Positions 12,701-15,700 of a stretch of 64,000 nt of DNA are shown here, one piece after another. The number at the start of each line of letters is the position of its first letter. The stretch's first letter is position 1. The position numbers and the translations under genes are program-made. The notes beneath the pieces are model-generated. The model worked only from the letters and a program-made list of their open reading frames with translations. It was not told where the DNA came from and ran no database searches. The stretch comes from Gnetum montanum (lineage: Eukaryota; Plantae; Gnetophyta): the NCBI GenBank assembly GCA_015680685.1, contig MNCI01000825.1, positions 133,625 through 197,624 of the forward strand. The letters run 5' to 3'.

Positions 12701-15700
12701 CTTGGACAAAACTAGTTTTTAAGGTATCATAATGCTACTAAAGATAGATGATATGTAATAGATGCATCAATCCTTAGGATTATGAGAACTAGCAAGGTTT
12801 CATCATATCAATAATTTGTTAAGTCTAATAAGGGAAGGAGGTACATAGGCCCTATAGTCATCCCATCATTATGAGTCGCATCCCTATTAGTTGTTAATGT
12901 AAGTATAATCCCATGTTTTTAGAAGATTGGAAAAGAAAAAAAATTTGTACTAATTTTTAAAGAGTGGTTATTAGGGGTCCTATAGATCAAGAGGAATTGA
13001 ACCTAAGATTTAGCAAAATTAGAATTTTAAAATATTAAAAGTTGCAAATTAGAAAATTGAACCTGTAACCTATTAGAATATATTTTTCAATCATGGAAAG
13101 AATTGAACTCATGACTAGGTGGTGTGAAAAAGGTTTTATTAAGAAAAAAGAAAATAGAGACAAGGATAACAGTATTCAACAAAGAATCAATTACAAGAGA
13201 CAACCTATCTCTTGAATTCCACTAGCAATTATAAAAAGTGGAGAGTGGGGAAAGGAAAAGATAAAAAAGAAAAAGAAGAGTGTGTGTGCATATAGGAAAG
13301 AAAGAGAGCTCAATCACAAGGGAGTGTGGCTGGAAATGAACAACAAAAGGAAGACTATGGTTGAAATAGAAGATGAACAACAACAACAACAAATTGTGGC
13401 TAAAACAGAAAATGAACAACAACAAGAGAAGACTATGGATAAAACAAAAAATGAATAGCAATAAGGCTGCGGTTGCTGCATAAGACATCGAATTAAACAA
13501 ATTAGAGCTAAGTTGCAATCCAACATAGTGATTAAGTATTCTTGGTAAGCAAGAAGGTCAAATGTGTCCTTCTCTTGCTATGTGTGATGGACAACATTGG
13601 CTGGTTATCTTAATATCTCAGCTCTTTTCCTTTCTTTGGCTTGAATATCTTTTTGTGTCTGAATCAACTTTGACAAGATTTGTTGTTGGATCTCTCCACC
13701 CATCCTTGGCACTTTCAAGTATAAATAACTTGGATGAGAGTGGCTTTTGTAACAATTCAGAAATACCCATAACAATTTGGGCCATTTTTGGCATAACGAT
13801 TTGCCAACAGGGGCCAAGGATCCTATATATGAAGATTTGTGCCACTAGCAGAAAGTGACTATCCTTAGGCCCATGTCAATTTTGTGATTTTCTCAAATTT
13901 ACAAAATCATTGAATTATTGGTTTTTGGTTAGAAATTGGCATGAAGAACCCCTTTGAATGCTTAATTCTTGGATTTGAATTTTGATTCTTATTTGTGTAC
14001 CTTCTCATGTTGGATTTTGTTATATTTCTATGAATCCAATAGAGTGAGGGAAATCTAGGATGTGAATTTATGGTCGTTAAATATTAGTAAACTTAGTTCA
14101 TGGCTGTTATGTTAATGATTTCTCTATTCTCTATTGTTCACAAAACCACACCTGATGCTTACAGTTGCCAGGGAAGCCTAATGCAATGACAAGTATCCTG
14201 CTCCTAGGCATGGATTGCTTCCAGCACCACCCTGTGGTGCTCCGTGTCGACAAATGCAGCTGCTTGTTGGAAGTCCTTTAGAGCCTCCACCTTGGCCGCA
14301 CACTCCTCTGCAGTCCCCCATCCATCAGAATGAAACACTGCAAACGTCCTTTGAATATGCCTCTGTAATGTCGTCCAAGGCGTATTAGAATTAATATTCA
14401 TGACAACGTATGGGCATTTCCCCTCCTCCAGCCACCTCCTCGCATTCTACTCATGGGCTTGATCTATCTATCGCTAGAGCTCTTTTGCCTCACGCTCCTC
14501 CCTCTCCCTCTGCTCCCGCTCTACCTACTTTGACTCCACTTTTTGCTTCTCCTCCTGTGGCAATTCCATACGAATTTGCTCCCGTAGTGAGTCTTCAAGA
14601 GTTGCCCTACTTGTAGCCTCCTTCAGCTCCCACCTCCTCTTCAACTCTTGCTCCCTTTCTACAAACTGTTGCTCAGCCATCCTCATGTCGTGGCTGAACT
14701 CCTACTCCCTTGCTTCCCACATATGATGCTCTTCCCACCAAACACAAGCAATGACCTCCTTAGGAACCCTAGCTGCAATTGCCTCTGTCTCCTCCAAAAT
14801 AGCATTCGTGTGGGCCTCATACACTACCATTTCTATGTCCAGGCTCCTAATCTTGGCGTTGGCCTCCGCCACCACATAATGGACATCTGCCTTAGCCCTG
14901 TCAACCGACACGGCCTCCCTCTTTGGAACAAGATCACAATAAGACTCACCAATCTCATCACCCCCAAGCTGCATCCACCCCTACAAGGCCAGCCGACGGC
15001 TATACACCACCCTCAGCTCAAGCCTCAGTGGCCTAGACACCGCCGACATCACCACCTTCCAAAAGGCCAAAATAAGCCCTAAATGGTGACCCCACCATTG
15101 CCACTTGAGAACCTCAAAGAAGAAATGAGGCAGGTTGACCCTACAACCAAGTTTGAGACATTAGGAAGGAGAAGTGGACCCCCTGCAACAAAGAATCGGT
15201 CCACTAACTCTGCTGCCAGTTGTCAGAGCTAGGGCAAGGCAAATTTGGGCACCTGCCCACTTGCTATTTTCAAGATATTCCCATAAAAGAAAACTTGCGC
15301 ATCCTGCAAGCCACAAGCCTAGGGCAGGATAACATCACCAGTCACCGATGCACCAAGAGAGATAGAAATCACCTCAACAGTTAGAGGGATGTGAACCCCT
15401 CAAAAAATTGTGACATCCTCCTACCAATTGTGGTAGGAGTCAATTGCTAGATCCAAGTCCCCCTTTAGTAGCTCCAAAACCTCCACCCATCCAGCCCACT
15501 ACACCAGCATCCAAAGCTCCGCATTATCCTAGTAAGCTATGCAATCTAGCTCAAATATTGGCATCTACCGCATCGTCGTTGTCGCTTCCCTCCACAGCCG
15601 CACCCCCTCCTGCACAACCTGAGTCAGCGATGGCAACCTAATCAACCGAAAAATTAAATTATTGTGAGCGCACCATAGACTCCACAACATAGTCGTCACA

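Follow-up and report, generated by a model that had tools for sequence, protein, structure and literature searches.

Plant L1 ORF2 proteins are described as an endonuclease, a reverse transcriptase (RT) and a zinc finger, with or without RNase H, and the locus analysed here raises the question of whether such a protein can carry a further, long C-terminal part of another kind. The window, which is the whole analysed stretch of 64,000 nucleotides from Gnetum montanum, was originally predicted to hold three divergent LINE copies with an extension in place of RNase H, descended from an ORF2 that was one polypeptide. It represents plant-type DNA rich in repeats, with a GC content of 36.7%, an N count of 898 and an assembly gap of N at about 41876-42787. 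The LINE copies and their domains are located as follows.

About 20080 to 14159, minus strand: copy 2, a decayed LINE
19131..20078, minus strand: decayed ORF1 of copy 2 with DUF4283 (Pfam PF14111, E 6.3e-17)
17652..18700, minus strand: start of copy 2 ORF2 (ATG 18700), apurinic endonuclease, frameshifted (PF03372 E 2.4e-5, PF14529 E 2e-4)
16260..17339, minus strand: reverse transcriptase of copy 2, frameshifted (PF00078 E 1.7e-8 and 0.0049)
15640..15990, minus strand: zf-RVT zinc finger of copy 2 and the W..H/RN..IF motif (PF13966 E 2e-12; translation)
About 5400 to 1, minus strand: copy 1, a second decayed LINE of the same kind, with its ORF2 ATG near 3955
About 940 to 1, minus strand: extension of copy 1, truncated by the window edge
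27795..29039, plus strand: copy 3, a 1245-nt 5'-truncated insertion

The Pfam matches of copy 2 exhibit the plant L1-type domain order, with DUF4283 in ORF1 and endonuclease, RT and zf-RVT in ORF2, which identifies copy 2 as a decayed LINE of the plant L1 type. Its RT matches the plant ORF2 proteins P0004 and P0005 (tblastn E 7e-15 and 6e-18, respectively), and the nearest RT relatives returned, 4 hits from 520 candidates, are plant LINE proteins with identities of 26–35%. The homology of the three copies was confirmed, but copy 3 is a piece limited to the latter half of the extension and a 3' UTR. DNA identity among the copies is only 62–66% in local alignments, and all copies seen in this analysis are dead. 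By eye, a decayed LINE RT-like stretch (QGCPLFP, FVDNVAL) was also observed on the plus strand at about 32100-32600, this position being approximate.

The coding sequence of copy 2 overshoots the usual ORF2 end by about 480 codons, and its real end lies beyond the limit of 14417 first assigned to the feature, at a stop at 14159-14161. The extension is divided into the following parts.

15565..15567, minus strand: junction codon, TAG in copy 2, a decayed CAG (favoured) or the true ORF2 stop
15030..15564, minus strand: first domain of the extension (domain 1, some 185 codons), interrupted by indels at about 15188 and at 15160
14771..15029, minus strand: linker, poorly conserved, open except for one TAG
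14450..14770, minus strand: coiled coil, E/R/Q/K-rich (E 25%, R 15%; AlphaFold helices)
14207..14420, minus strand: J-like domain, with HSD at 14324-14332 in copy 2
14159..14161, minus strand: terminal stop, in register with copy 3, the stop following RL...L in both

From the end of the zinc-finger motif (15639) to the terminal stop, the extension comprises 481 codons, or 501 when the deleted bases are included, which agrees with the roughly 500 extra codons proposed earlier, and 477 codons are counted from the junction codon; the distance from the ATG at 18700 to the terminal stop is 1514 codons, the deleted bases not being counted. Between the motif end and the terminal stop, the coding frames contain 13 TAG, 2 TGA and no TAA in 481 codons, as compared with 25 and 29 stops, TAA among them, in the off-frames of the same span. 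The observation that copy 2 is interrupted by TAG and TGA only is correct, but it does not apply to a single frame: the frame of the zinc finger and motif stays the same through to ELVDRFFV, with 6 TAG and 2 TGA, two deletions follow, one of 23 nt relative to copy 1 at about 15188 and one of 2 nt at 15160, and the coding sequence beyond these deletions reaches the terminal TAA with 7 TAG. In sequencing runs of related organisms, rather than of this source, the 2 nt lost at 15160 are present in 4, 4, 1 and 3 contigs of four runs, and at least three of the copy 2 stops (15223, 15816 and 15531) are sense codons in related copies among the variants listed; since the contigs probably show the same paralogous loci, the runs are not independent of one another.

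The homologous blocks that had been quoted are present in the sequence and score far above chance, copy 2 matching copy 1 at 16068-15433 and 15420-15178 (tblastn E 1e-25; second block 48% over 81 amino acids) and copy 3 at 14770-14174 (tblastn E 9e-37; 38% over 203 amino acids). The frameshifts, supposed to fall at different places in different copies, do coincide in one case, as copies 1 and 2 share a T-rich indel spot at HFAF..C.QLG with opposite signs (+2 and -2 relative to copy 3). A programmed or conserved frameshift at this spot was considered and rejected, because the indels of copies 1 and 2 are opposite in sign, with copy 3 and other contigs in frame.

The tail gave no Pfam match at all at E up to 10, RNase H included, and the RNase H of Rosa P0004 scored no better than shuffles in any of the nine frames of the three copies (best 39/200), so that the reported absence of an RNase H motif is borne out and the LINE family is without RNase H. 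Homologs of the tail were found neither in the P0002 search at near lengths nor in the P0001 search at longer lengths, the latter being a weak search in which ordinary zf-RVT proteins were missed too, nor with a two-copy profile against 1.84 billion representatives, nor in viral contigs or in metagenome contigs searched with the tail and RT alignments. One bacterial locus matched the tail over 15 residues only and was taken as chance.

Such a lack of homologs in the protein libraries searched would suit a tail made of host sequence picked up by 3' transduction and carried along passively, or an open frame that arose by chance, yet the substitution patterns are those of a selected protein. Domain 1 shows pN 0.355 and pS 0.78 over 120 codons between copies 1 and 2, with 49% amino acid identity; the coil and J region shows pN 0.418 and pS 0.82 over 191 codons between copies 2 and 3; the middle block of 37 codons has pN 0.324 and pS 0.73, and the RT has pN 0.309 and pS 0.79 over 201 codons. 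The codon alignments were guided by protein, which somewhat flatters pN, but the contrast between codon positions is plain, third positions being 35–41% identical between copies and second positions 61–76%. The extension is selected as a protein, its synonymous sites being saturated while its pN of 0.36–0.42 stays near the 0.31 of the RT, and the inference of selection from protein-level conservation despite DNA divergence is upheld by the pS of 0.78–0.82 against a pN of 0.355–0.418. The pN/pS values, the contrast between positions and the stop codon common to copies 2 and 3 indicate that the extension was coding for most of the time since the subfamilies split. By this selection result the passive-fragment reading is largely refuted and very improbable, synonymous saturation with low non-synonymous divergence being found in three copies, along with a junction common to copies 1 and 2 and a shared terminal stop.

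The smallest of the copies also shows that the tail belongs to the element, as its flanks carry a perfect target-site duplication (TSD).

27780..27794, plus strand: left target-site duplication of copy 3, 15 bp, a 100% direct repeat with 29040-29054
29040..29054, plus strand: right target-site duplication of copy 3, 15 bp, a 100% direct repeat

Copy 3 begins within domain 1 and contains the end of that domain, the coiled coil, the J-like domain, the stop and a T-rich 3' UTR, ending past a short A-run; the poly(A) is a 5-A run only, ahead of the right duplication, and the rough chance probability of the 15-bp repeat is 3e-5. The perfect duplication and the 5' truncation point to a target-primed insertion in which the tail belongs to the LINE 3' end, and the tail moves as the mobile 3' end of the LINE. 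Copy 3 sits between the SH3 and RT pieces of a Copia element (an integrase-side SH3), whose decayed pol lies on the plus strand at 26200-29600 (SH3_retrovirus E 1e-10, RVT_2 E 2e-20); other Copia pieces were observed on the minus strand at 23690-24013 and 31578-31826 (RVT_2 E 2e-16; Pol_BBD E 6e-12), and a weak Amidohydro_1 match on the minus strand at 22654-22950 (E 7e-4) is possibly a host exon among repeats. For copy 2, a target-site duplication was looked for and none was found. A higher-copy repeat starts right behind the copy 2 terminal stop at 14000-14140 (summed depth 134-476, first bin), the UTR homology between copies 2 and 3 stops near 14133, and the copy 2 3' UTR seems to be cut by another element.

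Whether this selected tail was joined to ORF2 depends on the junction codon. No change was observed at 15565-15567 at 40% of depth or more in three DNA runs, which implies that most copies at least 80% identical keep TAG and that at most one of the three aligned other copies in X1 differs; the loose ends of X1 and X7 keep TAG as well, whereas the loose-end consensus of X3 (3 contigs) is CAG. At 15480-15780 no indel at 40% or more was found in the three DNA runs. The junction TAG lies 37 codons past the first W of the motif, near the end of the RNase-H-less P0005, and therefore fits a natural ORF2 end. Both the position and its retention in most close relatives are in line with a tail that is a separate ORF3, or that is reached by occasional UAG read-through at 15565-15567, behind an ordinary RNase-H-less ORF2, much as LTR elements carry extra ORFs after pol; a likeness of domain 1 to an Athila-type extra-ORF family, a lead from the Atlas search, speaks for the same reading, PF20167 being placed in an Athila extra ORF by an excerpt of PMC11728184.

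A separate ORF, however, has no evident start. Just one ATG is conserved across copies, and it precedes the junction TAG by two codons in the same frame; the ATG behind the TAG is ACG in 2, 2 and 3 contigs and in loose ends, or GCA, and the next ATG (15510) varies. As for read-through, CARYYA is a read-through motif and the 3' context of the junction TAG differs from it. The stop itself is countered by the CAG version in X3 and by copy 1, which has the sense codon ATG at the junction and is free of stops between the post-finger helix and GWVDLL, its 2-nt offset lying just past the motif and before the extension; the residues flanking the junction codon on both sides are conserved between copies 1 and 2. 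The canonical part of copy 2 has 11 in-frame TAG against 23 CAG, and the extension has 13 against 10 (TAG 24 of 57 in total), and other copies share TAG at 15756 in the zinc-finger region and at 15621, 15612, 15306 and 14557, where copy 2 has CAG. Since CAG-to-TAG decay is very common here, the shared junction TAG is weak evidence for a real stop; the strong decay across 14150-18700 also makes heavy CHG methylation of the copies likely. One RNA run placed three reads of less than 95% identity on the junction and is uninformative on expression. On this sequence evidence, the extension was probably fused to ORF2 as a single polypeptide, as originally proposed, the CAG version, the copy 1 sense codon and the lack of a conserved start favouring it and the TAG kept by most close relatives and the 2-nt offset of copy 1 weighing against it, while the separate ORF3 or read-through is rather unlikely.

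The second half of the extension is predicted to be helical. In an AlphaFold model of the two-copy alignment, residues 21-100, the E/R/Q-rich part, form long helices with pLDDT 87–96, which corroborates the coiled coil common to copies 2 and 3; a fold search with the long model returned generic coiled coils only. The region behind it is modelled with low confidence (pLDDT 40–64) as helices at 130-136, 142-156, 164-182 and 187-197, and a tripeptide stands between the second and third of them, framed like J helices I–IV. J-domains are laid out as helices I–IV with HPD between II and III. The tripeptide is HSD in both window copies that reach this region, copies 2 and 3 (in copy 3 at 28554), and the variant 14329 A>G turns TCT into CCT and HSD into HPD, the J-domain signature. 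This variant was found in 8, 4, 2 and 4 contigs of the four runs (depth 68.2/73.2, 29.6/49.9, 7.92/7.92 and 16.1/16.1), and HPD is the reading of most related copies.

A J profile was made from 61 distinct J-domains from 81 loci, the 61 being kin. Of 5000 shuffles, the number reaching the score was 189 for copy 2 as it is, 5 for copy 2 with the 14329 variant and 23 for copy 3, and in the reverse test 53 of the 61 related J-domains were above the 99th percentile of their own shuffles. The profile aligns ungapped from Y..L.V to HPD, the Y..[ML].[VI] start lying 25 residues upstream of HPD; its scores are low, at about 5 bits, with an hhalign probability of 1–3% (P 0.014–0.02), and in a six-frame scan of the whole window the J-like region did not stand out. 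Pfam DnaJ and PDB sequence searches of the region gave no hit. With the first model, Foldseek placed J-domain entries at ranks 2, 9, 16, 23 and 24 of the top 24, at E 2–5 and none significant, and a fold search with a J-only model (mean pLDDT 52) returned helical hairpins (Z of at most 6.2), the matches listed including no J-domain.

These results bear on a C-terminal helical domain that is merely J-like, or one that is a J-domain but has ceased to work with Hsp70; the tail would then serve as a structural or oligomerisation module. Such a domain would account for the HSD in two copies that are 62% identical, for the scores of about 5 bits, for a helix II without the usual basic YRK run and for the fold match that is not significant. 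It is less easily reconciled with HPD in most related contigs, exactly at the profile position and behind the ungapped start, or with the five J-domain entries among the top 24 Foldseek ranks, all with E above 2, and it is quite unlikely. The J-like call of the original prediction is strengthened by HPD in related copies and by a profile score above shuffles, though neither Pfam nor the fold searches yield a significant J match, and the C-terminal domain probably has a J-domain origin or a true J-domain fold, as judged from sequence and model.

Judged by eye from its motif, domain 1 resembles Transposase_32. In the Atlas search, a 57-residue stop-free piece of copy 1 returned 29 unnamed clusters and one Pfam-named set, PF20167 (30 hits; score 0.89, the family being on 49% of members), and a second piece of domain 1 reached 0.76 with low recognition. 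Domain 1, whose pieces are decayed, gave no Pfam match to PF20167, and the window's own PF20167 piece compared with domain 1 was not above shuffles (525/5000). PF20167 occurs in an Athila extra ORF and is related to PF03078, according to the same excerpt of PMC11728184. A descent of domain 1 from a Ty3/gypsy extra ORF (Transposase_32) is a weak lead that may equally prove right or wrong.

The window also exhibits Ty3/gypsy-type sequence of its own. A stop-free piece on the minus strand at 57532-57906 matches Transposase_32 (PF20167) at E 2.6e-4, below the curated cut-off, and has a Ty3/gypsy-like pol upstream of it on this strand, with an integrase zinc finger at 63206-63439. An 84% direct repeat pair (44462-45261 and 53643-54425) surrounds RT and integrase pieces at 49300-50937 and is likely the LTRs of a Ty3/gypsy element, the interior of which is 71–74% like an inverted element at 59177-63998. 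Another direct repeat pair of 83% identity and 1.3 kb, at 32738-34018 and 35682-36958, is LTR-like with a short interior.

Taken as a whole, a LINE with a selected tail, a probable ORF2 fusion, a likely J-domain and recruitment of Hsp70 to its own RT particle is the best explanation, with about an even chance of being correct. The element would make a single ORF2 protein of about 1520 residues, the C-terminal end of which would be the coiled coil and the likely J-domain. ORF2p would bind its own mRNA in cis, the coiled coil could act as an arm holding the J-domain, and HPD could stimulate host Hsp70 beside the RT, where Hsp70 may aid RT folding or the switch to an RNA-binding state; alternatively, it may help to strip ORF1p during reverse transcription. 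Given the fusion and the J fold, this proposed function is plausible by analogy, at slightly less than an even chance: the hepadnaviral RT requires activation by the Hsp70 system to bind its RNA, as an excerpt of PMC2094093 describes.

A different role, compatible with fusion or with a separate ORF, would be chromatin action, in which the Transposase_32/PMD-like domain and the J-domain counter silencing or steer insertion, in imitation of host J-proteins active at methylated DNA. PF20167 may be linked to PMD. The heavy CAG-to-TAG decay, which suggests strong methylation of the copies, would suit this role, as would plant precedents: SUVH1/3 rely on DNAJ1/2 to enhance expression close to methylated transposons, and the J-protein SILENZIO mediates silencing by MBD5/6 (10.64898/2026.08.25.747133, PMC8616336 and PMC11694752, in excerpts). 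TE-encoded PMD proteins may counter silencing, according to part of the review cited with PMC8616336. Domain 1 is tied to PF20167 by a weak lead and PF20167 to PMD by a putative link; chromatin action is improbable, and Hsp70 recruitment to the RT particle is the preferred explanation.

In its boldest form, which is doubtful, that explanation has the RT of an L1 lineage extended by an accessory domain of Ty3/gypsy origin, a coiled coil and a functional J-domain, which would make the element the first known LINE with its own Hsp70 co-chaperone. If true, it would imply RT activation in cis or a hijack of host J-protein chromatin pathways, and a module passed from LTR to non-LTR retroelements. 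A J-domain tail of 480 codons kept through synonymous saturation would make a third plant L1 ORF2 architecture, and it offers a direct route to the question of whether the mobility of LINEs is limited by chaperone recruitment, or whether a LINE interferes with J-protein-based silencing; it also provides a search model for other plant genomes, the dead copies limiting its immediate use.

Domain capture by plant L1 elements is known for RNase H and RRM (PMC5203782, in part), and Ty3/gypsy elements capture many domains (PMC9289625 and PMC7264820, in part). DnaJ is not named in the section text of the 121-genome LTR screen (PMC9289625), and it is absent from the main text and two of the three supplementary files of PMC5203782 and from an excerpt of PMC7264820. 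A literature search, with Repbase and subscription papers outside its range, found, among the titles listed, no relevant work on a LINE or other retroelement with a J/DnaJ domain or a third ORF, nor a LINE with a comparable tail, and the architecture belongs to a known element class and is apparently undescribed in the literature searched.

Among known systems, plant L1 elements such as Camelina P0005, which lacks RNase H, share the ORF1 domain, ORF2 core, post-finger motif, 5' truncation and TSD, but P0005 stops about 50 residues past the motif, whereas the LINE family here codes for about 500 more. RNase-H-bearing plant L1 elements, for which Smyshlyaev 2013 is reportedly the source, differ in that the module here is not RNase H and is about three times longer. 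They share with the family here the position of the acquired module, which follows the zinc finger (RVT_1 and RVT_3; Rosa P0004; PMC5203782, in part). The extra ORFs of Ty3/gypsy elements (PF20167, ATHILA ORF-1 PF03078 and PMD, and the orchid AlkB ORF; excerpts of PMC11728184 and PMC9289625) likewise represent non-canonical modules fixed in a retroelement, while in the present case the module sits in a LINE, shares the frame of ORF2 and closes with a J-like domain. The hepadnaviral P protein provides an analogy, with no homology claimed, as an RT that needs Hsc70/Hsp40 to engage RNA, the J-protein there being of the host and acting in trans (PMC2094093, in part). With J-domain proteins (Hsp40/DnaJ; SILENZIO, DNAJ1/2), the tail has in common the HPD of related copies, the helix spacing and a profile score above shuffles, but it is very divergent, below Pfam detection, and stands at the C-terminus of a retroelement protein, with a putative Hsp70 activity.
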